Positions 1,484 through 44,768 of a stretch of DNA of 64,000 bases are shown here, piece by piece. The DNA lies in the NCBI GenBank assembly GCA_963840855.1, contig CAWJBB010000050.1, forward strand, positions 64,001 to 128,000, read 5' to 3'. A model generated the notes under the pieces. It was not told where the DNA came from, searched no databases, and was given only the letters and a program-made list of their open reading frames with translations. The DNA is from an uncultured delta proteobacterium (GTDB taxonomy: Bacteria; Desulfobacterota; Binatia; UBA9968). How positions within the stretch are numbered: the first letter of the stretch is position 1; the number at the start of each line of letters is the position of its first letter. Made by a program: the position numbers and the translations under genes.

Positions 1484-1536
1484 CGACGCCTCAGAGAAAT
1501 CTCACAGGATTAGTTCGAGGGAGAAATCAGTTCAAT
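1484..1536. repeat. Palindrome A, partial copy (spacer plus right arm)
   Basis: cgacgc...aaatctcacaggatt...ggagaaatcagttcaat matches the other copies. Confidence 0.75.
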
Positions 1537-1541
1537 TGGAT

Positions 1542-1665
1542 GGTTAACGACCAAGCTCAGCGACCGCCGCCCGAAACGCCCGGTCGGCTGCAACAGTCGC
1601 TGACAAATTACCGAACCGTCCGACTGCAAAGCGGGCGGCGGTTCGCTGCAGCGTTCTTGTTATGT
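1542..1665 (-). other. Integron attC site
   Basis: Minus strand reads ACATAAC-AAGAACGCTGCAGCGAACCGCCGCCC...GGGCGGCGGTCGCTGAGCTTGGTC-GTTAACC: R''/R'-like boxes, a long imperfect stem, 16 bp after the VOC stop codon. Confidence 0.85.
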
Positions 1666-1681
1666 GACGAAACGGCCACAA

Positions 1682-2026
1682 TTAGACCTGCCACAATCCA
1701 GATTCAATGCCTCCTTGAATCAAAATGGCGAATTTACCGCGTCCTGGGATCTCAGTTGGCTGCATTGCGATTTTTGCGCCGGATTGGCCTGCGGCGGCGA
1801 CGGCTGCCTCAATATCATGGACAAGGAAGTAAGGACGCACCACCTGGGTCTCGGTATGTCGCAGTGGAGCTCGAATCCCCAGCGTTCCGCCGTTCGCCAG
1901 GTTGGCAGTGCGTGCGCCCCCTAGACTCTCATCGGCGGCGCCGAAAGAAATGCCATGAATCTTGGAGTATAGCGCAACAGACGCGTCAACATCCGGTGTC
2001 ACTATTTCGAGGTAATGAATTTGCAT
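1682..2026 (-). CDS. VOC/glyoxalase-like protein (integron cassette gene)
   Basis: MQIHYLEIVTPDVDA...VVRPYFLVHDIEAAVAAA...PTEIPGRGKFA; RBS gaaaggga; attC downstream. Confidence 0.85.
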   Translation of the reverse strand: MQIHYLEIVTPDVDASVALYSKIHGISFGAADESLGGARTANLANGGTLGIRAPLRHTETQVVRPYFLVHDIEAAVAAAGQSGAKIAMQPTEIPGRGKFAILIQGGIESGLWQV

Positions 2027-2357
2027 TGTATTCCCTTTCTCAGTGTTCGTGTCCTCAACCGCCAATTGGTCGCCAGACAATTCGTTCGTACTTTCCGCCC
2101 AGACTATCATGATTTGGCGAACAACCAATGTGTAGGATGGCTGTCCACGGCATTGCAATAAAGGCAATACCAGCATGGAGAAGATTACGCCGATTGATCC
2201 TCTGCATAGTCCTTCGTCACATAACCAGTGCGTATACTGACCCATGTATTACCGATTCGAAGAATCACGGCTCCGTCAATCATTTTTCGTTCTCGTTCAT
2301 CCCAATATACCTGGTCAGCATATTACCAATATAGCTGCGAGCCGCAGCCGCAAGATG

Positions 2358-2429
2358 CAGGATTGAACTGATCGACGCAACGGACAAATCTCACAGGATT
2401 TGTTAGATGGAGAATTCAGTTCAATCCTG
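2358..2429. repeat. Palindrome A, full copy
   Basis: Perfect 14-bp inverted repeat caggattgaactga/tcagttcaatcctg; inner acaaatc-tcacag-gatttgt. Confidence 0.9.
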
Positions 2430-2453
2430 GCAGCGCAGCTTGGTTTTCTTTCA

Positions 2454-3419
2454 TCACCTGATCAGCTTATTCGCTCGCGCGAGCACGTCCGGCGGAATTG
2501 TCAGACCAATCTGCTTTGCGGTCTTGAGATTGATGACAAACTCGAACTTGGTTGGCTGCTCGACAGGGAGGTCGGCAGGCTTGGCTCCCTTGAGGATTCT
2601 ATCTACGAAATATGCGACGCGCCGGTGCAGATCGAGAAAGTCCCCGCTATAACTCATCAGCCCGCCATCGACAACGAATGGTGAATTGGGGTAGATAGCC
2701 GGTAGCCGCGTTTTAGCCGCCTGACTAGCGACCCGCATCCGTTGACCGTTCATCCAACCGCCCCCCGATATGATGAGCGCCTCGGTTTCGTTGGCCGCGG
2801 CTCGAAAGGACTTCTCCAGATCATCCGGCCCTTTCATTTCGATTGTTTTAAGCTGCAGGCGGAGCGCGCGCGCTGGGGCCTCGATCTCCCGGACGTTGGC
2901 CTTACCACTTAGACCAGTCCAGAGATGGCCAACCCGGGAGACTTTCGGAAAGGCTTCCTTCAAGAGCTCCAGCCGTTTTCCCGCGAGCCCCGCGCCGAGG
3001 CCAGTGTAACCCGTGATATTGCCCCCAGGCCGAGCAAGACTTTCTATGAGTCCCATCTCCACGGGATCGTCAGCTACGTTCATCACGATGGGGATCGTGC
3101 TGGTTACCTGTTTCGCCGCTCGAATTGCCGGAATCCCGGTGGTCACGATGCAGTCGACCTTCAGCCGGACCAATTCAGCGGCAAGGCCGGGAAACTGACT
3201 CGTGTCGCCGCCTTTCGTAAAGCGCCATTCGATGAGAATGTTTTGACCTTCGACATATCCGAGCGCGCGAAGACTCTCTCGGAATGGCTCAACGGCGGGC
3301 GATGCTGCCGGCGCGAGGTAACCAACGCGGTAAAGTTTCTTCGCCTGCTGCGCCTCTGCGGGAAGGCACAGCGCAAAGAACATGGCGCAAAGCGCAAGAC
3401 GGATAACGTTCTTTCTCAT
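2454..3419 (-). CDS. ABC-type substrate-binding protein (ABC_sub_bind-like)
   Basis: Signal peptide ending AEAQQ; SLARPGGNITG; KRLELLKE; [35 protein letters not shown]. Confidence 0.93.
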   Translation of the reverse strand: MRKNVIRLALCAMFFALCLPAEAQQAKKLYRVGYLAPAASPAVEPFRESLRALGYVEGQNILIEWRFTKGGDTSQFPGLAAELVRLKVDCIVTTGIPAIRAAKQVTSTIPIVMNVADDPVEMGLIESLARPGGNITGYTGLGAGLAGKRLELLKEAFPKVSRVGHLWTGLSGKANVREIEAPARALRLQLKTIEMKGPDDLEKSFRAAANETEALIISGGGWMNGQRMRVASQAAKTRLPAIYPNSPFVVDGGLMSYSGDFLDLHRRVAYFVDRILKGAKPADLPVEQPTKFEFVINLKTAKQIGLTIPPDVLARANKLIR

Positions 3420-3471: not shown

Positions 3472-4470
3472 TCATTTAATGACCTTGTCCGCCCGATACA
3501 GCATCGACTGCGGAATCGTCAGGCCAATCTGCTTCGCGGTCTTTAGGTTGATCATCAACTCGAACTTCGTCGGCTGCTGCACCGGCAGGTCGGCGGGCCT
3601 GGCCCCCTTCAGGATTTTGTCCACGTACCAGGCGACGCGCCGGTAGCTGTCGCCGAGGTCCGCCCCGTAGTACATGAGCCCGCCGGCATCTACAGCTTCT
3701 CTTATGGCGTACACCGACGCTAACCGGCTCTTTAACGCAAAGCCCGCGATCCGTTTTTGGCTATTATTGATTAGCGGGCCGCCGGCGGGCACGTAGAGTC
3801 CATCCGGGCGCTCCTTGTTTAGCGCAGCGAATACCCGCTCGAAACCGTCCGCATCTCGTACCTCCCAAGGCTGAATAGCTAACCGCAGCGCACGCGCTGC
3901 GACTGGGAGAACCTCTTTCACCTCGACTACAACTTGCGAATTGGCCGGATCGTAGAGAACCGCGACACGGGCAACTTTGGGAACCGCTTCTTTGAGCAGC
4001 TCCAGCCGTTTCCCGCCTAGTTCTCTGGAAAGGTTTGTAAGGCCGGTGACGTTGCCGCCGGGACGGGCGAGGCTTTCAATTAAGCCTAGCTTGACAGGAT
4101 CGGACCCCTGACCCACCATGACGATGGGAATTGTCTTGGTCGCATTCTTGGCCGCCTGGATCACCGAGCGCCCTCCTGCTGCCACGATGATATCAACCTT
4201 GAGACGCACTAGCTCGGCTGCAAACTCAGGGAGCCGATCGACCTTCCCCTCCGTATATCGGTACTCGCTGGCGATGTTCTGTCCTTCTATGTAGCCAAGC
4301 TCGCGCAGAGCCAGCCGAATTGCCTCGGAACGGGTGGACTCAGTAGCTGGGTCGAGCTGCGATAGATACCCTATCCGGGTGACTTTCTTCGACTGCTGCG
4401 CCTCGGCTATCACTCCAAGAGCCAGTAGGATCACTACGGACAGGATTGCCAAGACACCAGATTTTTTCAT
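3472..4470 (-). CDS. ABC-type substrate-binding protein
   Basis: Same family motifs; start placed at MKKSG by comparison with paralogs. Confidence 0.93.
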   Translation of the reverse strand: MKKSGVLAILSVVILLALGVIAEAQQSKKVTRIGYLSQLDPATESTRSEAIRLALRELGYIEGQNIASEYRYTEGKVDRLPEFAAELVRLKVDIIVAAGGRSVIQAAKNATKTIPIVMVGQGSDPVKLGLIESLARPGGNVTGLTNLSRELGGKRLELLKEAVPKVARVAVLYDPANSQVVVEVKEVLPVAARALRLAIQPWEVRDADGFERVFAALNKERPDGLYVPAGGPLINNSQKRIAGFALKSRLASVYAIREAVDAGGLMYYGADLGDSYRRVAWYVDKILKGARPADLPVQQPTKFELMINLKTAKQIGLTIPQSMLYRADKVIK

Positions 4471-4574
4471 TGCAGACGTCATTTGCGTATTACGCGGAAG
4501 GTAGCAGAGAAAAGTGACATTTACGACAGAAGGCGAAAGATATCCGTCGAGTGGAAAAACCAGATTTTTAGCCT

Positions 4575-4594
4575 GAGATTGAACTGAACAACGC
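4575..4594. repeat. Palindrome A, left arm only
   Basis: gagattgaactgaacaacgc, following the conserved SBP leader. Confidence 0.8.
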
Positions 4595-4628
4595 TTCGTT
4601 CCAAACCCGCACGCAGGGCGAACCTGCC

Positions 4629-13671: not shown

Positions 13672-13721
13672 AGACTGCTATGTGGTGGAGCAAGCGTGGG
13701 ATGAATGCTGATTGTTTTGTA

Positions 13722-13742
13722 GGAGAAATCAGTTCAATCCTG
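13722..13742. repeat. Palindrome A, right arm only
   Basis: ggagaaatcagttcaatcctg. Confidence 0.8.
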
Positions 13743-13885
13743 CGATCGCGGCTAAGCGTTTCACTGTCTAATTTCGCGGTGCTTTGCTGTGCGCCCTATC
13801 CCGCCCGGTTGACTTTTTAGCGTGTCAAGAATAGAAGGCCCTTCTGCTCGTCGAGTGCCTTAAATGCACAAAAGGAGGGTTTGAT

Positions 13886-15301: not shown

Positions 15302-15403
15302 GTGAATAATAAGAATTAAAAAAACAGTCTGATCTCCCCTGGAGGTTTTTGAACTTTACGGACAGAATGTATTCCTCGAGTGGAAAAACCAGATTTTTAG
15401 CCT

Positions 15404-15423
15404 GAGATTGAACTGAACGACGC
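15404..15423. repeat. Palindrome A, left arm, preceded by an SBP-leader fragment
   Basis: tcgagtggaaaaaccagatttttagcctgagattgaactgaacgacgc, as at 4548-4594. Confidence 0.85.
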
Positions 15424-15584
15424 GACGTTTCAATCATATCACTGTTAGATCATCCGTACCGTGCTATAGTGTGTGGCCCAATCTCCATAGTCTTTATAAA
15501 ACTCAAATAATCCCACCGCTTGGCCATACGATCCCACTCCCTGGCCCCTTTATTTCCTCGCCATCTTGATAACGCTTTTCGAGA

Positions 15585-16369: not shown

Positions 16370-16540
16370 TACAACAAGGATTGATGACACCGCAGCCTTC
16401 TTCATTAGCGCACCTCGTTTCGAGCGTTTTGTATCACGCGGAGAGAGATAAAGGAAAGTGTGATTTACACGGAGGAAGGCGACAGGGATTCGTCGAGTGG
16501 AAAAACCAGATTTTTAGCCTGAGATTGAACTGAACGACGC
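16370..16540 (-). pseudogene. SBP 5' remnant (MKKAAVSSILV) with leader and left arm of palindrome A
   Basis: Matches the paralog start and leader; arm gagattgaactgaacgacgc at 16521-16540. Confidence 0.8.
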
Positions 16541-16721
16541 ATCGATCTAAATCGCCCATGGACTAGCACATTACGCGGAAGGTAGCAGTAACAATACTGA
16601 AGTCGCTGCCTGTTTTCCAGCAAGCGACGATAGCCCGAATCGTATTATCTCCTCATTGAGAGCGGAGGCCAGCGGAGACGGGGCGTGAGCCGGCACCTAT
16701 TCCGGATGCACTCTTTAAAAT

Positions 16722-28485: not shown

Positions 28486-28595
28486 TGCGCACCTCGTTTC
28501 GAGCGTTTTGTATCACGCGGATACAGATAAAGGAAAGTGTGATTTACGGCGGAAGGCGATAGGGATTGGTCAAATAAGAAGGCAAGGGCCACCCT

Positions 28596-28664
28596 GAGAA
28601 TTGAACTGTACGCAACAGTCTCGTCTTGTAGGATGAAGTCGTAGGAGAATTCAGTTCAATCCTG
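28596..28664. repeat. Palindrome A, divergent spacer
   Basis: attgaactgt...ggagaattcagttcaatcctg. Confidence 0.8.
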
Positions 28665-28688
28665 GCAGGGCTGCTTGGTTTTCTGCCA

Positions 28689-29188: not shown

Positions 29189-29276
29189 TTGATCGGCGCC
29201 ATCTAACCGCCGCGGGAGCCGATAATTGAGTATGCTATTTTACTTAGTCACGACTCAACGGCATAGCGTTAGCCTT

Positions 29277-29337
29277 GAGATTGAACAACGGACAAATCTC
29301 ACAGGATTTGTTAGACGGCGAATTCAGTTCAATCCTG
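29277..29337. repeat. Palindrome A with a small left deletion
   Basis: gagattgaacaacggacaaatctcacaggatttgttagacggcgaattcagttcaatcctg. Confidence 0.88.
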
Positions 29338-29361
29338 GTATCGCCGCTTCGCTTTCTTTGC

Positions 29362-30348: not shown

Positions 30349-30457
30349 TGCGCACCTTGTTCTTGCGGGTTTTTATCACGGATACGGTAGCTGAGAAAAG
30401 TGTTATTTACGGCAGAAGGAGAACCAGATTCATCGAGGGGGAAAAGGCTAATTTCGA

Positions 30458-30533
30458 CGCAGGATTGAACTGTACGACGCAACGGGCAAATCTCAGAGGA
30501 TTTGTTAGATGGAGAAATCAGTTCAATCCTGCG
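30458..30533. repeat. Palindrome A, full copy
   Basis: cgcaggattgaactg / cagttcaatcctgcg. Confidence 0.9.
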
Positions 30534-30557
30534 ATTCGCTACTAAGTGTTTCTGCCA

Positions 30558-31531: not shown

Positions 31532-31646
31532 TGCGCACCTCGTTTCGAGCATTATGTATCACGCCGATAGAGATAAAGGAAAGTGTGATTTACGGGCGGA
31601 AGACGACAGGTATTAGTTGAGTGAGAAAACCCGATTTTAAGCCTGA

Positions 31647-31716
31647 GATTGAACTGATCGACGCAACGGGCAAATTTCACAGGTTTTTGTTCGATGGAGA
31701 AATCAGTTCAATTCTG
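31647..31716. repeat. Palindrome A, full copy
   Basis: gattgaactga...aatcagttcaattctg. Confidence 0.88.
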
Positions 31717-31740
31717 GCATCGCTGCTTGGTTTTCTGCCA

Positions 31741-32739: not shown

Positions 32740-32846
32740 TGCAGACACCATTTGCGCATTACACGGAAGGTAGCAGAGAAAAGTGACATTTACGACAGAA
32801 GGCGAAAGGTATTCCGTCGAGTGGAAAAACCAGATTTTTAGCCTGA

Positions 32847-32885
32847 GATTGAATTGAACGACGCATCCGGCAAATCTCACAGGAT
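32847..32885. repeat. Palindrome A, left arm plus part of the spacer
   Basis: gattgaattgaacgacgcatccggcaaatctcacaggat. Confidence 0.8.
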
Positions 32886-32926
32886 GCAGTCAACAGAGAG
32901 GGATTAGTTCCGCGCCACGTTTAACG

Positions 32927-33103: not shown

Positions 33104-33532
33104 TCAAGAGCTGCGTCGATAGTCCAGAAACAATCCAGCTACTCTTTTGACGAGATCATCTATAACACGCCGGGTGGATTCGAGCTGCGCGCCAGCTTCT
33201 TTCCTAGGATCGGAAACCGGCCAATATTCCCATCTCGTCCGTGATGGAAAACTTGGAACGGGACCATCGAGGCTTCCCACGACTATGATTAAGTCAATAT
33301 CGTCGCGAGAGATTTCACCTAATCCTTTGCTGGCCCGCGTCAGTTTGATTCCGCGTTCCGCTAACGCCTCAACCGTTCCTCTGTCGGTGGGTCCAGGAAT
33401 AATACCTGCGCTGAAAATTTGCACTTGAGGAGAGTCTAGCCGCATTGCGATCGCTTCTGCTATCGGACTCAGGCAGGCGTTGTCCTGGCATAAGAACAGG
33501 ATTCTCCTATCGCGAATAATGTTTCTGACCAC
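33104..33532 (-). CDS. ArsC/LMW-PTP-fold protein
   Basis: ILFLCQDNACLSPIAEA, FSAGI, EYWPVSDP. Confidence 0.8.
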   Translation of the reverse strand: MVRNIIRDRRILFLCQDNACLSPIAEAIAMRLDSPQVQIFSAGIIPGPTDRGTVEALAERGIKLTRASKGLGEISRDDIDLIIVVGSLDGPVPSFPSRTRWEYWPVSDPRKEAGAQLESTRRVIDDLVKRVAGLFLDYRRSS

Positions 33533-33945
33533 TTTCTCCCCCCAATGATTTCAATGATTGACCCGAATTGTTTTACAGTACTGGTGCGGCTCTCAATTTT
33601 AGGAACGGCTTCCAGGCAACACCCTTTGGCGAGTGATCCGGCCAACGGAAAAGCTTCAGCCCAAAATCTATGGAACCGGGAATAGTAAGACTCCATCCGG
33701 AATTTGTCTTGACATTGTGCGCCATTCGATTGATATCTGCGGCGGCCTGGGTTGAGTTGGCGAGAAAGGTTTGACAAATCCACCGCACAAGGACAGGAGA
33801 TGAAAGAGGGTGCGTTACACGTTTTGTGATAATAAGAGCAGTCTGAGACGGCTAATGAAAGGCGCAACGGTTACTCGGCCACGCATATCATAACGACCAA
33901 GATGTCGGGGTGCCGCTCTTGGCAGCCAGAAGGCCAGACCACCAT

Positions 33946-34048
33946 GAGACTGAACTAAATGACGCGCGTCAATCGAATGCGACGTAGGATTGGTTTTGCG
34001 ATGGGGATGAATTCAGAGCGCTCAGATGGAGAATTCAGTTCAATCCTG
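33946..34048. repeat. Palindrome A with a longer, divergent spacer
   Basis: gagactgaacta...agatggagaattcagttcaatcctg. Confidence 0.7.
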
Positions 34049-34062
34049 AAATCGCCGCTTGG

Positions 34063-35210: not shown

Positions 35211-35226
35211 CACATTCGCATAACCG

Positions 35227-35294
35227 CAGAATTGAACTGATCGACGCAACGGGCAAATCTCACAGGATTTGTTAGACGGAGAAATTCAATCCTG
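35227..35294. repeat. Palindrome A, near-full copy
   Basis: cagaattgaactgatcgacgcaacgggcaaatctcacaggatttgttagacggagaaattcaatcctg. Confidence 0.88.
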
Positions 35295-35308
35295 GCATCG
35301 CCGCTCGG

Positions 35309-35469: not shown

Positions 35470-35522
35470 CTATAGTTTAAATTTAAACGATAAAAGTCTA
35501 TCTACTCTCTTGGGGGGCATGA

Positions 35523-36239: not shown

Positions 36240-36336
36240 CACGAGCGCCGGCTACGAACCGAGCAACGCGTCGTTGAAAACCATTTGTCAGAAACCCGCT
36301 AGCAATCGCATTCGGAAGTGATATGAATCGCGCGCC

Positions 36337-38286
36337 GTGAGGATACTGGAGCCAATTACGTCTATGTCATCCAGCCCAATAAGCGATAGCCGCGTGCCGC
36401 TAGACGCGGTCCTGTGTACCGAGGAATTGAATCGACGGCCGCCGCGCCCGCCGGACTACGAGACGGAAATCCGCGCCCTGGTGACCCTGGCTCAAGCGCT
36501 GGCCGACTCGCCGCGAACCATTCTTCAGACATTGGCCGACAAAATCCTGGAAGTTTTCCAAGCTGGCTCAGCGGGCATCAGCCTGCTGACCAAGGACGAT
36601 GGCGGAAAAAGGTTCCACTGGCCGGCGATCTCTGGCGTGTGGAAACCGCACATCGGCGGCGGAACGCCGCGCGACTTTGGCCCCTGCGGCGACGTGCTCG
36701 ACCGTAACGCCGCGCTACTGTTCCGGCATTTCGAACTGCGTTACACCTATTTCCTGCCGGTGACGCCTCCAGTCGAAGAGTGCCTGCTCGTTCCTTTTTA
36801 CGTCGAGGGGAAAGCAGTCGGCACGATCTGGGCGATCGCCCACGACGCTCGCCGCAAGTTCGATGCCGAGGATCTCCGGCAGCTTGAAAGTCTCGGCCGG
36901 TTTGCATCAGCGGCATATCAGGCCGTGGAGTTTCTTGATGCATTGGAGCAACGATCCGAAGCATTGCGGCGAAGCAACGCCGAACTCGCCGAGCGCATGG
37001 CCGAACTCCGGAACGCCAACGCACAGGCTGAGGAAGCGCGCCGCGCCGCGCTCAACGCGAATGCCGATCTTGAAAACCGCGTCGCGGACCGAACCGCCGA
37101 CCTGCGGCGGAGTATTGCCGAACGCGAGGAACTCCAGGACCAACTGCTGCAATCGCAAAAGATGGAGAGCGTAGGCACTCTCGCCAGTGGTGTTGCCCAT
37201 GATTTCAATAACCTTTTGAATATTATATTAAGCCACGCCACCAGTATGCGCTTAGACGGCAAGAACCCTGCGACCATTTCCGAAGGTGCCGCTGTCATTG
37301 AAGAGACCGTCAGGCGGGGAGCCAGCCTGGTCCAGCAGCTCATGACGTTGGGCCGAAAGACCGAGACCAAGTTTGAGCCTGTAAGGCTTAACAGCTTAGC
37401 CGAGAAACTGACCAATCTTCTCACAAAAACCTTTCCCAAGACGATCATCATAATTCTGGATCTGGAGCCGGGGCTTCCTGTGATTAACGGCGACGAGAAC
37501 CAGCTACATCAGACTCTGCTCAATCTCTGCGTCAACGCGCGCGATGCCATGCCCGAGGGCGGCCGCATGTCACTCAAAACCGAAACGGTTTCGGGAACTG
37601 ATCTGCGACGCCACGTCCCGGAAGCAGCAGCAGAATGCTATGTCTCCATCAGTGTAACTGATCGTGGCATCGGCATGGACGATGCGACTCAGCGGCGCGT
37701 TTTCGAGCCGTTTTTCACGACCAAGCCGGTAGGAGAGGGAACTGGGCTCGGTCTCGCAGTGGTTTACGGCATCGTAAAAAATCACGATGGTTTCATAGAA
37801 GTAAAGAGTAAGCTAGGTCACGGGACGACCTTTTGGATCTACTTGCCGATTCCGAGCGAAGCCACACGGCAAACATCTGCAGCGGGATCAAACTACACTG
37901 CGCTAAAGCGAGCGGGTAGTGGGGAGACGATTCTTTTCGTCGACGACGAGGAGAGGCAGTTGAATGTCATGCGGCGTTTTCTTGAGAACGAGGGATACAG
38001 AGTTCTCAGCGCCCAAGACGGCGTTGAGGCGGTGGAGACTTTCAAGCAACACAAAGACGCGATCGCCGTGGCGGTGCTGGATTTGGGTCTCCCGCAACTC
38101 GACGGTTGGCAAGCATTTCAGCAAATGAGAGAAATTCGCCCCGAGCTAAAAGCGCTCATCGCTACAGGCCTGATCTCCCCGGAAGTCGAGGCTGAAATCG
38201 CGCAAGAAAAATTGTGTGCAGTGCTTTCCAAGCCGTACCAGCTAGATGACGTTCTAGAGAAAATTTCGCAGGCGATCCATGGTTAG
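36337..38286 (+). CDS. Hybrid sensor histidine kinase (GAF-HisKA-HATPase-REC)
   Basis: QSQKMESVGTLASGVAHDFNNLL, NARDAM, FFTTK..GTGLGL, ILFVDDE; start may be the ATG at 36364. Confidence 0.92.
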   Translation: MRILEPITSMSSSPISDSRVPLDAVLCTEELNRRPPRPPDYETEIRALVTLAQALADSPRTILQTLADKILEVFQAGSAGISLLTKDDGGKRFHWPAISGVWKPHIGGGTPRDFGPCGDVLDRNAALLFRHFELRYTYFLPVTPPVEECLLVPFYVEGKAVGTIWAIAHDARRKFDAEDLRQLESLGRFASAAYQAVEFLDALEQRSEALRRSNAELAERMAELRNANAQAEEARRAALNANADLENRVADRTADLRRSIAEREELQDQLLQSQKMESVGTLASGVAHDFNNLLNIILSHATSMRLDGKNPATISEGAAVIEETVRRGASLVQQLMTLGRKTETKFEPVRLNSLAEKLTNLLTKTFPKTIIIILDLEPGLPVINGDENQLHQTLLNLCVNARDAMPEGGRMSLKTETVSGTDLRRHVPEAAAECYVSISVTDRGIGMDDATQRRVFEPFFTTKPVGEGTGLGLAVVYGIVKNHDGFIEVKSKLGHGTTFWIYLPIPSEATRQTSAAGSNYTALKRAGSGETILFVDDEERQLNVMRRFLENEGYRVLSAQDGVEAVETFKQHKDAIAVAVLDLGLPQLDGWQAFQQMREIRPELKALIATGLISPEVEAEIAQEKLCAVLSKPYQLDDVLEKISQAIHG

Positions 38287-38522
38287 GGCTGGGGCAAACA
38301 ATGATCAACGAATATTCGGCCAAATTCCATCCCGTAAAACTCGGCCAACCCGGCTAAGTCGAAGCCGAATGTAATACCAGTGTCTTGAAACCGTACGACT
38401 TCCACCACGGAGCCCAGGCGACCGTCTTTGAGGATCGACCCGAAGGGATGCCAATAATGGGTATAAGGCGGCCCAGGAACGGCGCTGCCGGTGATCCAAT
38501 AGCCTTTGTAGCGTTCCATCAT
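38283..38522 (-). CDS. Small hypothetical protein translationally coupled to SRAP
   Basis: ATGA overlap with the SRAP stop; duplicated at 24735..24938. Confidence 0.7.
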   Translation of the reverse strand: MMERYKGYWITGSAVPGPPYTHYWHPFGSILKDGRLGSVVEVVRFQDTGITFGFDLAGLAEFYGMEFGRIFVDHCLPQP

Positions 38523-39196
38523 AGCAGTTTGCCTTCAGCCGGGAGGATGCATTCCGGCGAATCGTTGCGGTGATTGTTCACAAAGGGTGACACGTCGTAG
38601 CCTTCCATCTTTTCCGGCGGATACGGTTTCAGCAAAGTGAGAGCATGAGCGATTTCGTAGTCAAGGGCAAGCCATTTAAACGCGTCGTCGTTACTGAGCA
38701 TGACGGGCATCCGATTATGGATCGGGCGCAACACGTCATTCGACTCCGTCGTGACAATCGTATAGGTCCGCAATGAACTTCCATCCGGTTGCTTCCAGCT
38801 ATCCCACAAACCGGCGAACGCGAACGGTTCCCCGGACTTGAGCTTGAACCGCATGGGGGCTTTTCGCTTGCCCCCTTGCCGCCACTCGTAAAAGCCATCG
38901 GCAAGAACGAGACAGCGGCGATTCCCCAGCAGCCCCCTGAAAGCCGGTTTCTCAGCGAGCGTTTCAGCGCGGGCGTTGATCATCACGTTACCGATGGCCG
39001 GATCATTCGCCCACCAGGTAATCAACCCCCACCGAAAAAGCTCGATTCTTCGGTTTGAGTCCGCTTGAACGATTACTGGCGCTTCTTGACTCGGAGCGAT
39101 GTTATATCGGGGCGTTAAACCGAAGATTTCATCGACATTCCAGGCAACGCGAAGGTCGGAAAATTCACGGGGAAAATAAGTGTAGCGGCCGCACAT
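38519..39196 (-). CDS. SOS response-associated peptidase (SRAP/YedK/HMCES family), intact
   Basis: MCGRY (catalytic Cys2), RYNIAPSQ, INARAET, RCLVLADGFYEW, HNRMP. Confidence 0.93.
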   Translation of the reverse strand: MCGRYTYFPREFSDLRVAWNVDEIFGLTPRYNIAPSQEAPVIVQADSNRRIELFRWGLITWWANDPAIGNVMINARAETLAEKPAFRGLLGNRRCLVLADGFYEWRQGGKRKAPMRFKLKSGEPFAFAGLWDSWKQPDGSSLRTYTIVTTESNDVLRPIHNRMPVMLSNDDAFKWLALDYEIAHALTLLKPYPPEKMEGYDVSPFVNNHRNDSPECILPAEGKLL

Positions 39197-39217
39197 CACT
39201 AAGTATATCGCTACGGC

Positions 39218-39416
39218 GGATCGCGGTCAAATTTCACCTGCGGCGTATGATGCAGAAGGCGCGCAGGAACTACGGACAGGAATTTTGGTGGGCGCCGGGC
39301 GACCCTACGCCGGCCAGGGCGCCGGATGTGGAGGCGGCGGTGCCAGACTGAAAAGATCGGATAACTGTCGACCTGTCGGCACTTAGAATATCGAGAACGT
39401 TGCGGGCCACTAAAAC
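39218..39416. repeat. Repeat C upstream of SRAP
   Basis: Near-identical to 25636-25832. Confidence 0.85.
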
Positions 39417-39517
39417 GACCTCGTTCTAGGCTATCACGCACACGGCAATTGCGAAAAGGATTTGCGGCAGAAGAGAACTACGTTTCGTCGAGAGAAAATA
39501 GGCCAAATTCGGCCTGA

Positions 39518-39550
39518 GATTGAACTGAAGGAGAATTCAGTTCAATCCTG
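39518..39550. repeat. Palindrome A with the spacer deleted (arms only)
   Basis: gattgaactgaaggagaattcagttcaatcctg. Confidence 0.88.
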
Positions 39551-39576
39551 CGATTCGCTACTAAGTGTTTCTGCCA

Positions 39577-40551
39577 TCACTTGATCACTCTATTCGCTCT
39601 CACCAACACGTTCGGCGGAATCGTCAGGCCGATCTGTTTCGCTGTCTTCAGATTGATGATGAACTCAAACTTCGTCGGCTGCTCCACCGGCAGGTCGGCA
39701 GGCTTGGTGCCCTTGAGGATCTTGTCTACATAATACGCCGCACGCCTGAAACTTTCAGCTTCATCGGCTGAATAGGACATCAGGCAACCAGCCTCCACGT
39801 AATCACTTCTTTCACACATGGATGGTATTCGGTTCTTTATGGCAAGGTCAGCGATTAACTTTCGATGACTAATGGTCACACCCTGGGTATCGACAATGAG
39901 CGCGCTCACACGCCCGCTGGTCGCCACTTGGAATGCTCCCTCAAAATCAGGGTTTGGACCGCGAACCTCTAGCGAGAGAATCTGCACCTTTAGTGCGCGT
40001 GCCGCAGACTCGTAATCTGTCGTCAATCCGCCCAGGACTCCAATGCGCGACACTCCCGGAATCGCCTCGTTAAGCAATTCCAGCCGTTTACCGATTAAGT
40101 CCTTGGTGAGTCTCGTGAGTCCTGTGATATTTCCGCCTGGATGCGCTAAGCTATCTATTAGCCCAAGCGCGACTGGATCGCCGGTAATCATCATCACGAT
40201 GGGAATCGTCTTGGTCGCCTGTTTGGCTGCACGGATACCTGAATTAGCTGCGGAGACAAGCACATCGACCTTGAGCTGTACGAGCTCAGCCGCGAAGCCT
40301 GGAAGACGGTCCCCCACTCCCTCAGCATAGCGATACTCGACAAGGATGTTTTTCCCCTCAATATAACCGAGATCCCTTAGCCCTTGGCGGAATGCATTCT
40401 CGAACAGATCGGGACTAGTAGACGTCGGCTTGACCCTGTTCGACAAAAATCCGATCCGCGGGCCTTTGCCCGGCTGCTGCGCTTCGGCTGTAACTCCAAG
40501 AGCAAGCAAAAACACTGCAACCAGGATTGACGGCACCGCAGCCTTCTTCAT
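39577..40551 (-). CDS. ABC-type substrate-binding protein
   Basis: Family motifs. Confidence 0.93.
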   Translation of the reverse strand: MKKAAVPSILVAVFLLALGVTAEAQQPGKGPRIGFLSNRVKPTSTSPDLFENAFRQGLRDLGYIEGKNILVEYRYAEGVGDRLPGFAAELVQLKVDVLVSAANSGIRAAKQATKTIPIVMMITGDPVALGLIDSLAHPGGNITGLTRLTKDLIGKRLELLNEAIPGVSRIGVLGGLTTDYESAARALKVQILSLEVRGPNPDFEGAFQVATSGRVSALIVDTQGVTISHRKLIADLAIKNRIPSMCERSDYVEAGCLMSYSADEAESFRRAAYYVDKILKGTKPADLPVEQPTKFEFIINLKTAKQIGLTIPPNVLVRANRVIK

Positions 40552-40658
40552 TGCACACCTCGTTTCGAGCGTTACTTATCACACGGACGGAAATAAAGAA
40601 AAGTGTGAGTTACGGCGGGAGGCGATATGCGTTCGTCGAATACAAAGGCCAGAATCAC

Positions 40659-40734
40659 GCTAGGATTGAACTGAACGACGCAACGGACGAATCTCACAGG
40701 ATTTGTTAGACGGAGAATTCAGTTCAATCCTAGC
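40659..40734. repeat. Palindrome A, full copy
   Basis: Perfect 17-bp inverted repeat gctaggattgaactgaa/ttcagttcaatcctagc. Confidence 0.9.
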
Positions 40735-40756
40735 ATCGCCGCTTTGTTTCTTTCGA

Positions 40757-41743
40757 TTACTTGATCACCTGATCCGCCCGCGCCAACACGTTCGGCGGGA
40801 TAGTCAGGCCGATCTGCTTCGCCGCTTTCAGACTGATAATGAACTCGAACTTCTTCGGCTGTTCGACGGGAAGATCGGCGGGCTTGGTCCCTTTTAGGAT
40901 TTTGTCAACGTAAGTGGCGGCGCGCCGCCACATATCAGCAAGGCTTGCTCCATAGAACATGAGGCCGCCGACATCCACAAATTCCCTATGTGCGTACATC
41001 GCCGGCAACCGGCTCTTGGCCGAAAGGGCCACAATTCGTCCTGCCTGACTAACGAACATCGGGTCTGGCAGCACCATAAGCGCCCTGGCTCCCTCGCGGG
41101 TTGTGGCCTCGAAAGCCTTGTCAAACTCGGTTGGATCGCGGACCTCTTGGACCCGAATCTGGACTCCCAATGCTCGGGCCGCAACCTCCATGCCTTTTAG
41201 CGACAGCTCACTGTCTGGATTCCTTGGATTCGAGAGCACAGCCACCCGGGAGACCTTCGGGACGGCTTCCTTGAGCACCTCCAACCGTTTCCCGCTTAAC
41301 TCTTGCCCGAGAGCGGTCAGTCCCGTGATGTTTCCCCCAGGGCGCGCAAGGCTAGCAACGAGCCCGCCCGCGACAGGATCGCCGGTCGTCACCATGACAA
41401 TGGGAATCGCACCAGTGGTGTTTTTCACAGCTATAATCCCTGGTGTAGACCCTACTACGATCACGTCCGCCTTAAGGCGGACAAGCTCAGCAGCGAAACC
41501 TGCGAGACGTTCGATATTACCTTCAGCATACCTAGGCTCAAGCTTGATGTTCTGTTCCTCCACGTACCCGTGTTCGCGTAACCCTTGTCGAAGCGCGTCG
41601 ACCAGTTGAGGAGCACCAGACGCGCTGGCGGGAACAAAGGCGCCTATCCGGTGAACTTTCTTCGGCTGCTGCGCTTCGGCTGTAACTCCAAGAGCAAGCA
41701 ACACCACGGCAACAAGGATTGATGGCACCGCAGCCTTTGTCAT
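40757..41743 (-). CDS. ABC-type substrate-binding protein
   Basis: Family motifs. Confidence 0.93.
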   Translation of the reverse strand: MTKAAVPSILVAVVLLALGVTAEAQQPKKVHRIGAFVPASASGAPQLVDALRQGLREHGYVEEQNIKLEPRYAEGNIERLAGFAAELVRLKADVIVVGSTPGIIAVKNTTGAIPIVMVTTGDPVAGGLVASLARPGGNITGLTALGQELSGKRLEVLKEAVPKVSRVAVLSNPRNPDSELSLKGMEVAARALGVQIRVQEVRDPTEFDKAFEATTREGARALMVLPDPMFVSQAGRIVALSAKSRLPAMYAHREFVDVGGLMFYGASLADMWRRAATYVDKILKGTKPADLPVEQPKKFEFIISLKAAKQIGLTIPPNVLARADQVIK

Positions 41744-41854
41744 TGCGCACCTCGTTTCGAGCGTTATGTATCACGCGGATAGAGATAAAGGAAAGTGTGA
41801 TTTACGACGGAAGTCGACGACGTTTTGTCGAGGCAAAAGACCAAATTTGGATTG

Positions 41855-41927
41855 ACACTGAACTGTACCAATAGCGTGAGGTGAATTTAGCAGGTTTGAG
41901 CCGATAGAGAATTCAATTCAATCCTAG
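41855..41927. repeat. Palindrome A, degenerate copy
   Basis: ctgaactg...gagaattcaattcaatcctag, with the same spacing as the other copies. Confidence 0.7.
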
Positions 41928-41950
41928 CATTGCCGCTTCGTTTTCTTCGA

Positions 41951-42928
41951 TTACTTGATCACTCTGTCCGCTCTCGCCAACACGTTGGGCGGGATCGTGA
42001 GACCGATCTGCTTCGCGGCTTTCAGATTGACGATGAATTCAAACTTCTTCGGCTGCTCGACGGGCAGATCCGCGGGCTTCACGCCTTTCAGAATCTTGTC
42101 GACGTAAAAAGCGGCGCGGCGATACAGATCGGAAATGCTCGTCGCATAGGTCATGAGCCCCCCGGCGTCAACAAATTCCTGCTCAGGATACATCCCCGGC
42201 AACCGGTATTTGACTGCCAACTTGACCAATCCTTTTTGATGAGTAACGAAAAACCCACCTCTGTCAGGGATGAAAGCATCTGCACGGGTCCGAACGATCG
42301 ATCGGAACCCGTTTTCCATATCTTCAGAACTTTCTACCGCAACAGAGTTGATGTGTACTTTGAGCAACCGCGCCGCGGCCTCGGTTTCTTTAAGATCACT
42401 GGACGGGCGGCGCACGTCCAAGAAAAAGGCTACGCGAGAAAGCTTTGGAATAGCTTCCTTGAGCAACTCAAGTCGCTTGCCTGCTAGATCGGAAACAAAA
42501 TTGCTCAGTCCCGTGATGTTTCCGCCGGGCCGTGCCAGGCTGGCGATGAATCCCTCGTTAACAGGGTCTGCCGTGTTGGCCATGATGATCGGAATGGCGC
42601 CGGTGGCTTGCTTGGCGGCACGAGTCGGAGACCCGCCCGCGGTGACGATGCAGTCGACCTTGAGACGCACGAGGTCGGCCGCCAGCTCCGGAAGGCGATC
42701 GATGTTTCCTTCCGCCGAGCGGTACTCAATAGCGACGTTTGTTCCTTCTACGTAGCCAAACTCTCGCAGCCCTTGGCGGAAGGAATCGAGCCGGGATGCC
42801 AACGAGGAAAGTGAGGCGGTCGAAATAAAACCTATCCGCGGAACTTTCCCTTGCTGCTGCGCCTGAGTGGGAACGCTGAGCGCCAAGAGCAAAGCGCTAA
42901 GAGCCAAAGCAAAAATGTGTTTCATCAT
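41951..42928 (-). CDS. ABC-type substrate-binding protein
   Basis: Family motifs. Confidence 0.93.
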   Translation of the reverse strand: MMKHIFALALSALLLALSVPTQAQQQGKVPRIGFISTASLSSLASRLDSFRQGLREFGYVEGTNVAIEYRSAEGNIDRLPELAADLVRLKVDCIVTAGGSPTRAAKQATGAIPIIMANTADPVNEGFIASLARPGGNITGLSNFVSDLAGKRLELLKEAIPKLSRVAFFLDVRRPSSDLKETEAAARLLKVHINSVAVESSEDMENGFRSIVRTRADAFIPDRGGFFVTHQKGLVKLAVKYRLPGMYPEQEFVDAGGLMTYATSISDLYRRAAFYVDKILKGVKPADLPVEQPKKFEFIVNLKAAKQIGLTIPPNVLARADRVIK

Positions 42929-42964
42929 TCTTTCCTCTCACGCCTTACGCCTCACGGCTCACGC

Positions 42965-43945
42965 CTATCGAATCACTTTGTCCGCCCGCGCCAGCACGTT
43001 CGGCGGAATCGTCAGGCCGATCTGCTTGGCGGTTTTTAGATTGATGACGAACTCGAACTTCATCGGCTGCTCGACGGGGAGATCGGCGGGGTTGGCGCCT
43101 TTGAGGATTTTGTCCACATACGTAGCGGCGCGGCGGGCCAAGTCGTTGAGGTTCACGCCGTAGGTCATAAGCCCCCCGGCTTCCACAATTTCTCGATTGC
43201 GGTATATCACTGGGAGCCGGCTCTTTGCCCCGAGTTCTAGAATCTCGGCTCGGCGAGGATCGAGGTTGGGGCCCGATACCTGGACAATGACTGCCTCAGC
43301 CCGCCCCTTGGCTGCGGCTTGGAAGGCACTCTCAAAATCCTTGGGACTTTGGATGTCAAGGTATTGAACCTTCACTCCGAGCGCCCCTGCCGCGAGGTCA
43401 ATCTCTTTTTGAATTTGCGCGTAGTCCGGGGTGGCGAAGACGGCCACGCGCGAGAGCTTGGGAACGATCTCCTTCAGAAGCTCCAGTTGTTTGCCGCTCA
43501 ACTCCGGGCGAAGGGTTGCCAATCCCGTAATGTTTCCACCAGGCCGCGCTAGACTCGCCACGAAGCCGCTCCCAACAGGATCGCCACCTTGAACCATGAC
43601 AATGGGGATTGTGGCAGTCGCCTCCTTGGCCGCGCGTATATCTCCCGAACCGCCCGCAACGATGACGTCTATTTTGAGACGCACCAGGTCGGCCGCGAGC
43701 GCGCGCTGGCGATCGCGGTTTCCCTCACCAGATCGCCACTCAATGATAATGTTTTCCCCCTCAACGTACCCAACCTCGCGCAGCGCCCGCCGGAATGCCT
43801 CGCGTGAGGCCGACGCAGCGGACACAGGCGTATTAGTTAGGTATCCTATCCGCGGGACTTTCTTCGGCTGCTGTGCCTCGGCCAGGACCGCAACAGCAAG
43901 CATTACGACTGCAACCAGGATTGATGCCCATCCAGCTTTTTTCAT
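42965..43945 (-). CDS. ABC-type substrate-binding protein
   Basis: Family motifs; start placed at MKKAGW. Confidence 0.93.
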   Translation of the reverse strand: MKKAGWASILVAVVMLAVAVLAEAQQPKKVPRIGYLTNTPVSAASASREAFRRALREVGYVEGENIIIEWRSGEGNRDRQRALAADLVRLKIDVIVAGGSGDIRAAKEATATIPIVMVQGGDPVGSGFVASLARPGGNITGLATLRPELSGKQLELLKEIVPKLSRVAVFATPDYAQIQKEIDLAAGALGVKVQYLDIQSPKDFESAFQAAAKGRAEAVIVQVSGPNLDPRRAEILELGAKSRLPVIYRNREIVEAGGLMTYGVNLNDLARRAATYVDKILKGANPADLPVEQPMKFEFVINLKTAKQIGLTIPPNVLARADKVIR

Positions 43946-44052
43946 TGCGCACCTCGTGCTGGAGACTATCACGCGCACCATAATTCCGAAAACAATTATT
44001 TAAGGCAGAAAAGGCAACGACTCGTCGAGAGGAAAAATACGAAATCCGACGT

Positions 44053-44122
44053 AGGATTGAACTGAACGACGCATCGGACAAATCTCACAGCATTGCGTCG
44101 TCGGAGAATTCAGTTCAATCCT
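44053..44122. repeat. Palindrome A, full copy
   Basis: aggattgaactgaa/ttcagttcaatcct. Confidence 0.9.
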
Positions 44123-44147
44123 GGCTTCGCATTTTGCTTTTCTTCCA

Positions 44148-44768
44148 TCACTTGATCAACTTGGTCGCCCGCGCGAGTACCTCCGGCGGAATCGTGACGC
44201 CGATCTGCTTCGCGGTTTTGAGATTGATCACCAGCTCAAACTTCGTCGGCTGCTCCACCGGAAGTTCAGCGGGCTTGGCGCCTTTAAGAATCCTGTCCAC
44301 GAAATATGCGACGCGCCGGTAGCTGTCCGCTTCGTCCGCCCCGTAGTACATGAGCCCGCCGGCGTTTACAGCTTCTCTGTTGCCGAACACCGACGGTAGC
44401 CGGCTCTTAAACGCAAATTCCAGGATCCGTTTTCGGTTAGGACGCATTACCCTGCCCGCGGTCACCGGGTAGAGTCCATCCGGGCGCTCCTTGTTTAGCG
44501 CAGCAAAGACCTTATCGAAGTCGTCCACCGCTCGTATCTGCCAAGGTTGAATAGTCACCTTTAGCGCACGCGCGTCGGCTGGGAGAAGCTCTTTCACCTC
44601 GTGTAAACTTTGCGGATTGGCCGGATCGTAGAGAACCGCGACACTGGCAAGTTTGGGTACCGCTTCTTTGAGCAGCTCCAGCCGCTTCCCGCCTAGTTCT
44701 CCGGTAAGGTTGGTAACGCCCGTGACGTTGCCGCCGGGACGGGCAAGGGTTTCAACCAAGCCTGCCTC
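44148..44768 (-). pseudogene. SBP truncated at its 5' end by an IS21-like element
   Basis: Homology stops at ..EAGLVETLARPGG, where the IS end begins. Confidence 0.88.

Follow-up and report, generated by a model that had tools for sequence, protein, structure and literature searches.

Binding-protein genes and hairpin sites in the window

The window, i.e. the whole 64,000 nt stretch of contig CAWJBB010000050.1 that was analysed, derives from an uncultured soil delta proteobacterium (Binatia; UBA9968) and carries binding-protein (SBP) genes, all of which lie on the minus strand, in the single orientation that a sequence-only reading of this DNA had described. The ten tested all match the Pfam family PF04392 (ABC_sub_bind). 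They include a pair (2454-3419 and 3472-4482) with no hairpin site between the two genes, a group at 29362-30348, 30558-31552 and 31741-32880, each with its own conserved leader of ~110 nt, and a run at 39577-40551, 40757-41743, 41951-42928, 42965-43981 and 44148-44759. Some are damaged, i.e. 30558-31552 is frameshifted, 44148-44759 is truncated, and a short 3' remnant ends at 28689. The N-termini look like Sec-type signal peptides, none with a Cys, in agreement with the signal peptide lacking a lipobox Cys that had been proposed. The SBPs are also the orphans they were taken for: the stretch 1484-44768 contains neither an ABC ATPase (E<=1e-10) nor a BPD_transp_2 permease match, the sole ATPase match in the window lying at 61974-62417, and the genome tally stands at 128 SBP-like frames vs 11 permease-domain matches.

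A conserved DNA hairpin of ~70-72 nt separates SBP and some other genes into one-directional arrays in this uncultured soil-bacterial family. An nhmmer profile built from seven window copies gave 13 matches in the window, to which arm searches added three left-arm-only copies (4577, 15406 and 16523) and a 30-nt mini-site (39518-39547), together the same 17 palindrome copies as had been counted before. The central motif occurs six times vs 0.24 expected, and the arm motif 39 times vs 17.6 expected, counts attained by 0/100 shuffles in either case.

All copies in the window are on the minus strand. Full copies lie at 2354..2440 (28 nt past the stop of SBP 2454-3419; nhmmer 95.6 bits; DNA fold -18.7 kcal/mol, z -6.0), at 30453..30536 after the frameshifted SBP and at 31638..31727 after SBP 31741-32880 (both nhmmer), as well as at 40656..40743 after SBP 40757-41743 and at 44046..44132 after the truncated SBP (both nhmmer and fold). 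Less complete copies that still follow SBP genes are found at 28595..28675 (alternative centre, after the 3' remnant; nhmmer and an R1 match), 29270..29348 (distal arm shortened by a 10-nt deletion, behind SBP 29362-30348; nhmmer), 39518..39547 (the mini-site, which keeps both arms but has lost the centre, after SBP 39577-40551) and 41854..41937 (degenerate, after SBP 41951-42928). Further copies comprise one with a degenerate distal arm at 1468..1537 (nhmmer 47.1 bits; R1 39.7 bits), a distal arm alone at 4566..4600, upstream of SBP 3472-4482 (exact arm GATTGAACTGA at 4577), a gene-proximal half at 13710..13753 (nhmmer, profile positions 48-91), a distal arm with the centre deleted at 15395..15435 and another distal arm alone at 16512..16545 (both from arm searches), and the distal two-thirds of a copy, its remainder replaced, at 32839..32899 (nhmmer, positions 4-64). 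Two copies are associated with IS91-like sequences, namely a degenerate one at 33945..34059, joined to an IS91-like terminal segment (34102-34225), and one that lacks 4 nt of the proximal arm at 35221..35305, inside the 3' region of an IS91-like element whose parts surround it (35160-35208 and 35306-35469).

The palindrome lies 28-33 nt downstream of 9/9 PF04392 stop codons, measured from the GTTCAAT arm to the stops at 2454, 28689, 29362, 30558, 31741, 40757, 41951 and 44148, and to that at 39577 (30 nt). The association with SBP stops first noticed is present at all nine, at a larger distance than the 24-26 nt then given, a figure explained by the site end having been drawn a few bases further out. 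Past the other arm, a conserved SBP start follows after ~95-115 nt, close to the ~105-120 bp reported earlier.

Distribution and cassette contents in the genome

A profile search with nhmmer, extending the scan from the window to the whole genome, located 74 copies over 15 contigs. Their strand is uniform within each of the 15 contigs, none having copies on both strands, and 26/59 within-contig spacings are <=1.5 kb. The palindrome does behave as a delimiter of one-directional gene units, as had been suggested, and the arrays consist of at least two co-oriented sites, close together, with intI absent nearby, i.e. they have the make-up of CALINs (attC clusters lacking an integrase).

The units are not confined to SBP genes. 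Only 27/74 copies directly follow an SBP reading frame, of the 67 copies that have a proximal arm 34 are flanked by an SBP 3' end, and entire site clusters on C27 and C75 separate other genes, so that the supposed exclusive tie to SBPs has to be abandoned. Non-SBP genes between copies include glyoxalase-like, low-molecular-weight phosphatase (e.g. 33104..33532 in the window, minus strand), DUF4440/SnoaL-like, DUF1801, YHS-domain and GAF-kinase genes as well as unknowns. Tight tandem arrays of SBP genes without the hairpin site also exist, for example on C6. Where SBPs are linked to the site, the site, a 28-nt spacer and the leader are conserved as one block, and the site-linked SBPs do not make up a single clade, with 10 changes on a tree of 52 proteins, at least five of which are forced by supported branches.

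Anatomy and folding of the site

Arm-to-arm length is 54-74 nt (median 66; 39 genomic copies), in keeping with the 57-141 bp given for attC imperfect palindromes in PMC5027507. AAC and GTT are invariant in 24/24 aligned copies, which were themselves picked by exact arms, whereas the core ATTGAAC...GTTCAAT departs from RYYYAAC/GTTRRRY at position 4 of both arms. An outer stem of 11-15 bp is followed by a bulge of 6-9 nt and an inner stem that is paired in some copies only; in the copy at 44046..44132, for instance, the inner CGACGCA/TGCGTCG stem pairs and one arm bears an 8-nt GGAGAA bulge. The hairpin is strong in five of eight folded copies, with z between -5 and -7.

Conservation is lowest in the centre, which varies in sequence and length among the 24 aligned copies. 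The 6-bp central spacer had been likened to that of a tyrosine-recombinase core; a crossover there is not supported, as the centre varies among relatives and the informative junction (see below) falls in the outer arm. The outer-base co-variation was not borne out in the form first given: the two copies originally cited are complementary, but the outer flanks are so in only about half of the 24 aligned copies (hand count), and RNAalifold found compensatory change at 0/12 pairs.

Purines make up 59% of the inner part on the strand opposite the genes, so that the genes point away from the purine-rich strand. This non-transcribed strand folds better in 30/39 copies, and 30/39 show the extrahelical-base polarity expected of attC; the same purine/bulge polarity is described for the recombined bottom strand of attC in PMC5027507.

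Flank reassortment and canonical attC sites beside the hairpin site

Evidence for shuffling at the site, which had been postulated, comes from comparing flanks. The copy C46:104621 has 630 nt plus the site in common with C50:93270 on one side (93%), and 1565 nt in common with C75:18683 (98.7%), beginning where the ATTGAA arm begins, while its other flanks are unrelated in both comparisons. Five more pairs with one common flank are identical up to the arm. Judged from sequence, the C46:104621 junction is compatible with an IntI exchange at the A/C step of AAC in the bottom strand. One further exchange breakpoint (C69:68123 vs C85:101446) lies inside an SBP gene, away from the site, and therefore indicates homologous exchange.

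Ordinary integron arrays with canonical attCs co-exist in the same genomes, downstream of IntI and separate from the hairpin-site arrays, and hybrid R boxes between the two kinds of site were not seen. A surrogate covariance model (R2), for which 22 canonical attCs from this family were used, found 0/17 window copies, its only overlap being marginal (35218-35277, E 2.6-4.2), which agrees with the expectation that attC models would miss the site. R2 does detect canonical attCs that abut the site in the window: one on the minus strand at 1542..1665 (ACATAAC...GTTAACC, long variable centre; 35.7 bits, E 2e-5), after a glyoxalase-like gene (1682-2245; Pfam) and 5 nt from the hairpin site at 1468..1537, and a canonical-attC-like hairpin on the plus strand at 29201..29274 (19.4 bits, E 0.056), again 5 nt from the next hairpin site. 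Such abutment recurs at 4/17 other copies not flanked by SBPs, with one additional weak case, and the offset to the ATTGAAC core is constant at ~5 nt on either side of the hairpin site.

Integron integrases and distribution across relatives

The genome encodes an integron integrase on C1 (440.7-442 bits vs the TIGR02249 cut-off of 265), which lacks the last 17 model positions and is adjoined by three other recombinase genes, as well as a truncated second integrase fragment on C21 (218.8 bits). A covariance-model scan of relatives, as the first reading had recommended, detected the hairpin site in 36/60 genomes of the same family, 3/5 and 0/28 genomes of other families; the figures for IntI are 33/60, 3/5 and 0/28. 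The picture of an isolated system with no enzyme candidate is therefore contradicted, since IntI is present in the genome and in 33/60 relatives, and canonical attCs co-exist with and abut the site.

Co-occurrence within the family is nevertheless weak: 22 genomes have both, 14 the site alone, 11 IntI alone and 13 neither (odds ratio 1.86, p 0.30). No hairpin site was found in 18 upstream IntI flanks (<=10 kb), in 12 IntI-centred loci or at eight further loci (among them the flanks of five more IntI loci and those of the genome's own loci on C1 and C21), and no array adjoined an integrase at the loci examined. The 18 downstream flanks yielded two weak half-sites only, both in the same-genus genome G007. 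They lie 5-7 kb past IntI, on the side where the family's canonical attCs are found, and one of them comes 4 nt after ...GTTAACC.

A search for another enzyme tracking the site gave no co-distributed candidate. In three places a half-site stands before a gene for a Xer-like recombinase, but this gene occurs in only 5/101 genomes, and of the 36 family genomes with the site 21 lack the IS91 transposase (odds ratio 2.7, p 0.16), although an IS91-like variant with a captured hairpin site exists in about four copies.

Possible origin and mobility of the arrays

We consider the best explanation, with a probability of roughly 0.45, to be that these are non-canonical attC-like sites forming integrase-distant cassette arrays that are recombined in trans. 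The cassette unit would consist of the hairpin site and the gene upstream, mostly an orphan PF04392 SBP with its own leader, and units would be stacked one way, far from the integron integrase, as CALINs. The strand opposite the genes is predicted to form an imperfect hairpin. Its outer stem would be 11-15 bp long (ATTGAAC.../...GTTCAAT), followed by an internal loop made asymmetric by a purine bulge (GGAGAA) and, at the apex, by a stem-loop that varies. While anatomy, arrays, distribution, flank reassortment and the company of integrases and abutting canonical attCs are observed, cleavage as such, its position and the enzyme are inferred: an integron integrase whose gene lies at another locus would cut in the outer-arm AAC and thereby excise and re-insert units, so that the binding-protein repertoire would be reshuffled and amplified; homologous exchange between paralogues and IS91-like elements probably add further rearrangement.

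The one-strand arrays, the AAC/GTT of the exact-arm copies with their variable centre, the length and strand polarity, the reassortment at the outer arm, contents other than SBPs, the lack of a T-tract after the hairpin, and the presence of IntI, of abutting canonical attCs and of the G007 half-sites downstream of IntI all argue for attC-like sites. Against them count the blindness of R2, the distance and weak co-occurrence of IntI, the separateness of canonical arrays with no hybrid R boxes, the deviating core position 4, the long outer stem and a 6-9 nt bulge vs 2-3 extrahelical bases, the ~110-nt leader of SBP units (cassettes are usually promoterless), the breakpoint inside an SBP gene and the incomplete C1 IntI. 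Of the recombination-delimited array first proposed, the delimiter, the reassortment and the orphan SBPs hold up; the isolated new system, the 6-bp core and the SBP-only content do not.

Two main rivals compete with the attC-like reading, namely a REP-like 3' hairpin that is duplicated together with its gene, and a recombination system distinct from integrons. As to the former, which seems rather unlikely, the hairpin would bind RNA or protein and end or stabilise the SBP transcript and the leader start the next, arrays arising without site-specific recombination, through gene conversion, tandem duplication and the action of IS91. REP hairpins do occur downstream of binding-protein genes (malE, hisJ), and the frequent SBP 3' ends at the proximal arm, the joint conservation of site, spacer and leader, the homologous exchange within an SBP gene, and the presence in the genome of another dispersed hairpin-repeat family and 10 Y1 (HUH) transposase matches would suit such a module. 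Yet the copies form clusters of strictly one orientation instead of being scattered, some clusters lack SBP genes, solo copies lie ~5 nt (ATTGAAC core) from canonical attCs, no array contains or adjoins any of the 10 Y1 matches, the purine-rich strand, which folds better, is not the transcribed one, and the site-linked SBPs are not a single clade.

A separate system we regard as less probable still. The palindrome would then be the site or end of a non-autonomous mobile unit, handled by a non-IntI enzyme and docking beside hairpins, including canonical attCs, an idea favoured by the blindness of the lineage's attC model, the arrays never adjoining IntI at the loci examined, the constant ~5-nt offset on either side, the IS91-like variant and the half-sites before the Xer-like gene. 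Neither that rare gene nor the patchily distributed IS91 transposase tracks the site, however, and its anatomy and strand polarity agree with attC rules. Similarly doubtful is a second hairpin-site cassette system beside ordinary integrons, invisible to attC models, with its own promoters, ~5-nt docking by canonical attCs and an unknown or repurposed recombinase, mainly amplifying and diversifying a set of orphan SBPs. That the site is just a terminator or operator copied whenever its gene was duplicated is very improbable, since despite strong hairpins 28-33 nt past stop codons no T-tract follows, 0/14 terminator-like matches of a consensus scan fall at a site, no Rfam family matched (at the gathering threshold or E<=10), and the site also occurs away from SBPs and beside attCs.

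If integrases recombine the site, the known structural range of attC widens and current attC models may miss whole cassette arrays in uncultured soil lineages; an integron-type platform would then be given largely to one ligand-binding family, each member expressed from its own leader. Should the site not be an integrase substrate, a lineage-wide structured element ~5 nt from canonical attCs would need a new explanation.

Comparison with known systems

The closest known counterparts are the attC sites in CALINs (definition and frequencies in PMC4889954) and sedentary chromosomal integrons with their homogeneous attC repeats (for taxon-specific attC conservation, see PMC8352920). Shared features are an attC-length imperfect palindrome after each co-oriented gene, AAC/GTT in inverse arms, a variable centre, high conservation within the lineage and the location of arrays at a distance from intI although the genomes encode IntI. 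The hairpin site differs from attC in its ATTGAAC/GTTCAAT core, outer stem and 6-9 nt purine bulge, in escaping the model of the lineage's own attCs, and in lying ~5 nt beside complete canonical ones; a further difference is that over half of the units carry paralogues of one gene family with their own leader.

REP/BIME and REPIN palindromes are lineage-specific extragenic hairpins as well, often located just after binding-protein genes, but the hairpin sites are clustered and one-directional and no RAYT gene was found beside copies. IS1111-attC insertion sequences and group IIC-attC introns target attC at a fixed position and orientation, and the hairpin site holds a comparable fixed place relative to canonical attCs, although the palindrome encodes nothing and neither a transposase nor a reverse transcriptase accompanies it. 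Finally, the excess of SBP genes over transporters recalls the Bug/TctC proteins, expanded families of orphan solute-binding proteins whose genes far outnumber the transporters, the differences being that the family here is PF04392 and that part of its expansion is organised by a conserved hairpin site.

The site and its copies in the window

The window spans C50:64001-128000 of an assembly of 7.1 Mb in 93 contigs (completeness 94%, contamination 8%); G+C is 56%. On its plus strand the site reads GGATTGAACTGA - (A/T)CGACGCAACGG - ACAAATC TCACAG GATTTGT - TAGATGGAGAAT - TCAGTTCAATCC, i.e. an imperfect palindrome, whose centre and arm each occur much more often than in shuffled sequence. The 17 copies in the window comprise 13 nhmmer matches, three single-arm copies that retain the low-coordinate arm only (4577, 15406 and 16523) and one 30-nt mini-site (39518-39547). 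The GTTCAAT arm ends 28-33 nt short of nine stop codons of genes for orphan binding proteins (SBPs), and about 95-115 nt separate the other arm from the next conserved SBP start. All ten of the minus-strand genes tested next to the site matched Pfam PF04392 (ABC_sub_bind), with zero matches to an ABC ATPase or a BPD_transp_2 permease in 1484-44768; genome-wide, 128 frames match an HMM of the window SBPs as against 11 permease-domain matches. Copy number, stop-codon spacing, gene family and the lack of transporter genes thus confirm what the sequence-only reading had observed, i.e. a repeated site set among SBP genes.

That reading had also seen co-variation of the outer bases. The two copies cited for it are truly complementary, but by our own count complementary outer flanks occur in just about half of 24 aligned copies, and RNAalifold gave a compensatory change in 0 of 12 pairs; the outer flanks simply fall into two classes that reassort. 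Rfam returned two tRNAs alone at the gathering threshold, and zero matches in 39400-44300 at E<=10.

Genes between the copies and distribution of the site

Throughout the source genome, nhmmer located 74 copies on 15 contigs, none of which carries copies on both strands. The near-full copies number 44 and the gene-proximal halves 17, while seven copies lack the proximal end. An SBP frame immediately precedes only 27 of the 74. In clusters on contigs C27 and C75 the site separates non-SBP genes (DUF4440/SnoaL-like, DUF1801, YHS-domain, GAF histidine kinase and unknowns), and a glyoxalase-like gene as well as a low-molecular-weight phosphatase gene lie between copies in the window. Half-sites of the window have phage-like genes (GemA-like, HNH-repeat protein, tail-fibre chaperone domain) between them, as well as a gene for an ATP-dependent DNA ligase (208-837, 12895-15301, 9201-10190), suggesting insertions into the array. 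Contig C6 holds a dense tandem array of 12 or more PF04392 genes without the site (G000:C6:801-15168, G000 being the source genome), with gaps of 0-100 nt, and this run is a second, operon-like architecture of the family. The 19 site-linked proteins are scattered over a tree of 52 full-length SBPs, site linkage requiring 10 changes, at least five of them forced by supported branches, compared with a shuffled mean of 15.7; some of these labels are noisy because certain units contain two SBP genes. The possibility that the conserved leader of about 110 nt before the SBP start is a decayed canonical attC was dropped, its inverted repeat being confined to one leader subclass.

With a covariance model (R1), the site was detected in 36 of the 60 genomes from the window's family, in three of five of a sister family and in none of 28 of a third family, which consists of one single genus; these tallies take in one unpublished genome (G014). 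Public genomes with the exact site pattern include 18 loci where the site and PF04392 genes alternate. The record titles name Binatia, delta proteobacterium, Blastocatellia, Verrucomicrobiia and Actinomycetota, but we do not claim a cross-phylum spread, since at least one 'Verrucomicrobiia' record is a genome (G053) that the genome search assigns to the window's own family. No syntenic array was common to the source genome and four same-genus and one same-family genomes, in which the best SBP matches show 78-85% identity. The best public read sets contain 20-30% of the words, in short contigs. Compared with 28000-45000, these contigs showed joints between paralogous SBP genes alone, matching over 21-37 nt on each side, and no joint at a site was usable. 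Literature searches with the arm sequences returned only unrelated primers, and among the matches listed no paper covered integrons together with Binatia/Binatota or PF04392/COG2984.

Integron integrases and canonical attC arrays

The source genome encodes an integron integrase (IntI) on contig C1, with a score of 440.7 bits (TIGR02249 cut-off, 265); its match ends 17 positions short of the model end, and the gene adjoins three other tyrosine-recombinase genes. Within C1:42546-47012 (extracted locus L009:2216-7012), the IntI 3' end is followed by these three genes and then by an inverted copy of the IntI C-terminus (72% identity across 69 aa). A C-terminal fragment of an integron integrase lies on C21. 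IntI-like matches (E<=1e-30) were obtained in 33/60, 3/5 and 0/28 genomes of the three families, i.e. IntI and the site show the same pattern across them. Inside the window's family, IntI and the site are weakly associated: 22 genomes have both, 14 the site alone, 11 IntI alone and 13 neither (odds ratio 1.86, p 0.30), the test being rough either way because the genomes are incomplete and related.

Arrays of the site were not found beside any integrase: R1 had no match in the 18 upstream flanks or at the 12 integrase loci searched and found just two weak half-sites in 18 downstream flanks, and nhmmer gave zero site matches at eight further IntI loci, those on C1 and C21 included. In relatives, a series of canonical attCs of the form GYCTAAC-5-...CAGNCGAC...GGCTGAGC...-5-GTTAGRC follows downstream of the IntI 3' end. 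Many relatives' contigs stop 0.2-1.3 kb past this end, which probably leaves the cassette arrays of these MAGs under-assembled. A covariance model of 22 canonical attCs of the same family (R2) finds arrays on three contigs of the source genome, i.e. C26 (eight matches), C58 (three) and C21 (three), those on C21 lying downstream of the truncated IntI. Run without filters at E up to 10, R2 matched none of the 17 window copies save for a marginal overlap at 35218-35277; the expectation that attC models would miss the site is therefore supported in the sense that the lineage's own canonical-attC model misses the window copies. Of the full window copies, a crude attC finder recovered three, and upstream of IntI it detected no arrays; with stricter core rules, it found canonical attCs downstream of IntI.

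In two places in the window an R2 match directly adjoins the site, leaving about 5 nt to the ATTGAAC core: one match (1542-1665, E 2e-5) stands behind the glyoxalase-like gene, the other is 29201-29274 (E 0.056). Such a match also stands beside four of 17 other copies without an SBP flank, plus one weak case, and the pattern GTTA(A/G)SC-N4-5-ATTGAAC is common to 13 of 67 proximal flanks. In a same-genus genome, two half-sites are located 5-7 kb downstream of IntI, on the side where canonical attCs follow it in this family; each precedes a Xer-like recombinase gene, and one lies 4 nt behind ...GTTAACC. By estimate, chance adjacency of 23 R2 matches and 74 sites in 7.1 Mb is negligible, so the site lives at integron cassette boundaries. 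Hybrid R boxes between the site and canonical attCs were not seen; where the two adjoin, a complete palindrome stands immediately after a complete attC. A system apart from integrons, as originally proposed, is not borne out: IntI and canonical attCs occur in the same genomes, and the attCs adjoin the site. We tentatively favour, at a probability of roughly 0.45, that the site is a non-canonical attC-like element forming integrase-distant arrays.

Reassortment of flanks at the site

Many pairs among the 44 copies with both flanks are near-perfect on one flank and unrelated on the other. The copy at position 104621 of contig C46 matches C50:93270 at 93% over its distal flank (630 nt) and the site, and matches C75:18683 at 98.7% over 1565 nt beginning at the first base of the ATTGAA arm, with the opposite flanks unrelated in both comparisons. 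The junction accordingly lies in or at the outer arm, resolved to about eight bases since every copy has this arm; three mismatches occur within the next 17 nt past it. This position would agree with the predicted integrase crossover at AA|C. The crossover had been placed at the centre of the site, which is not supported, given a variable centre and a junction at the outer arm. Another exchange ends about 170 nt within an SBP gene and hence is not site-specific, which fits the mosaic look of the SBP proteins. The reading as a recombination-delimited cassette array is partly supported, in that genes are delimited and flanks reassort at the site. That the site is cut, at which position and by which enzyme, we infer.

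Some copies share the gene-proximal flank but differ in the site interior because of an IS91-like element, about four copies of which have captured, within the 3' region of the element, a site together with 60 nt from an SBP 3' end. The IS91-family element is present in many copies (window 34102-34225, 35160-35208, 35306-35469 and 18023-18191; G000:C35:32582-34530; many on C1:66-100 kb). On C35 a Xer-like tyrosine-recombinase gene precedes the IS91 transposase gene, and one variant, with about 160 nt of site and SBP 3' end captured, has spread to about four places.

Alternative explanations and candidate enzymes

A REP-like 3' hairpin and promoter module copied along with the gene would account for the close tie of the site to SBP 3' ends and for the conserved leader, and is the rival that we would give perhaps one chance in four. 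However, it leaves unaccounted for that copies are clustered and strictly co-oriented, that some clusters are free of SBP genes and that attCs adjoin the site; moreover, the purine-rich, better-folding strand is the non-transcribed one, and none of ten HUH (Y1) transposase matches falls within an array.

Still less probable is a separate system served by another enzyme. The candidates tested do not track the site: the IS91 transposase is absent from 21 of 36 site-positive family genomes (a tally that takes in the unpublished genome G049), and the Xer-like recombinase was rejected as a general enzyme, since just 5 of 101 genomes have it and the gene of the source genome is broken. The Xer-like gene is always preceded by a gene-proximal half-site (GATTGAACTGAWTTCTCC; G000:C93:38155-38633 and, in locus L134, 5090-6092 and 7250-8250); it is frameshifted in the source genome, and intact and duplicated in a same-genus genome. 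A plain terminator is highly improbable, the site having no T-tract and 0 of 14 terminator-like scan matches lying at a site.

The array region is bordered on its high-coordinate side by a gene for a phage-type tyrosine integrase (47945-49045, plus strand) next to tRNA-Ser (49129-49220, minus strand), and G+C is 50-55% on the array side compared with 56-61% at 56-64 kb; the arrays may therefore lie in or beside a tRNA-linked island. This integrase was set aside as the site enzyme, showing the usual tRNA-island arrangement without a tie to the sites. GTTCAA-repeat hairpins near several IntI genes (L009:517-693, L099:260-350, L119:130-220) were dropped as attI candidates, being members of a dispersed repeat family, of which the source genome has well over 100 loci (e.g. 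C50:131972-132048, C61:17704-17778 and C34:42088-42164). Each arm of these repeats is built from three or four 9-nt units NNNGTTCAA in tandem. Records titled Chloroflexi, Bacteroidetes and Acidobacteria contain look-alike hairpins of GATTGAAC units.

Comparison with attC sites

As far as described in PMC5027507, attCs are 57-141 bp long, with R and L boxes, an unpaired spacer between them and extrahelical bases on the arm opposite the AAC; exchange occurs on the bottom strand between A and C of the conserved AAC, the terminal structure is variable, the bottom strand is purine-rich and more stable, and the attCs of one chromosomal integron are highly similar. In copies with a paired CGACGCA/TGCGTCG inner stem, our site folds into an outer stem, an 8-nt GGAGAA bulge on the 3' arm, the inner stem and a loop. 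It differs from attC in that position 4 of both cores violates the R/Y rule, the outer stem measures 11-15 bp, the bulge is far larger than two or three extrahelical bases, and the inner stem is absent in many copies. It is 54-74 nt long, with AAC/GTT at the expected places and a centre that is the variable part (24 copies from several genomes, chosen by exact arms). As to the strands, the one opposite the genes has 59% purine in its inner part, is the better-folding one in 30 of 39 copies, and has its surplus unpaired bases on the 3' arm, facing the 5' AAC, in 30/39.
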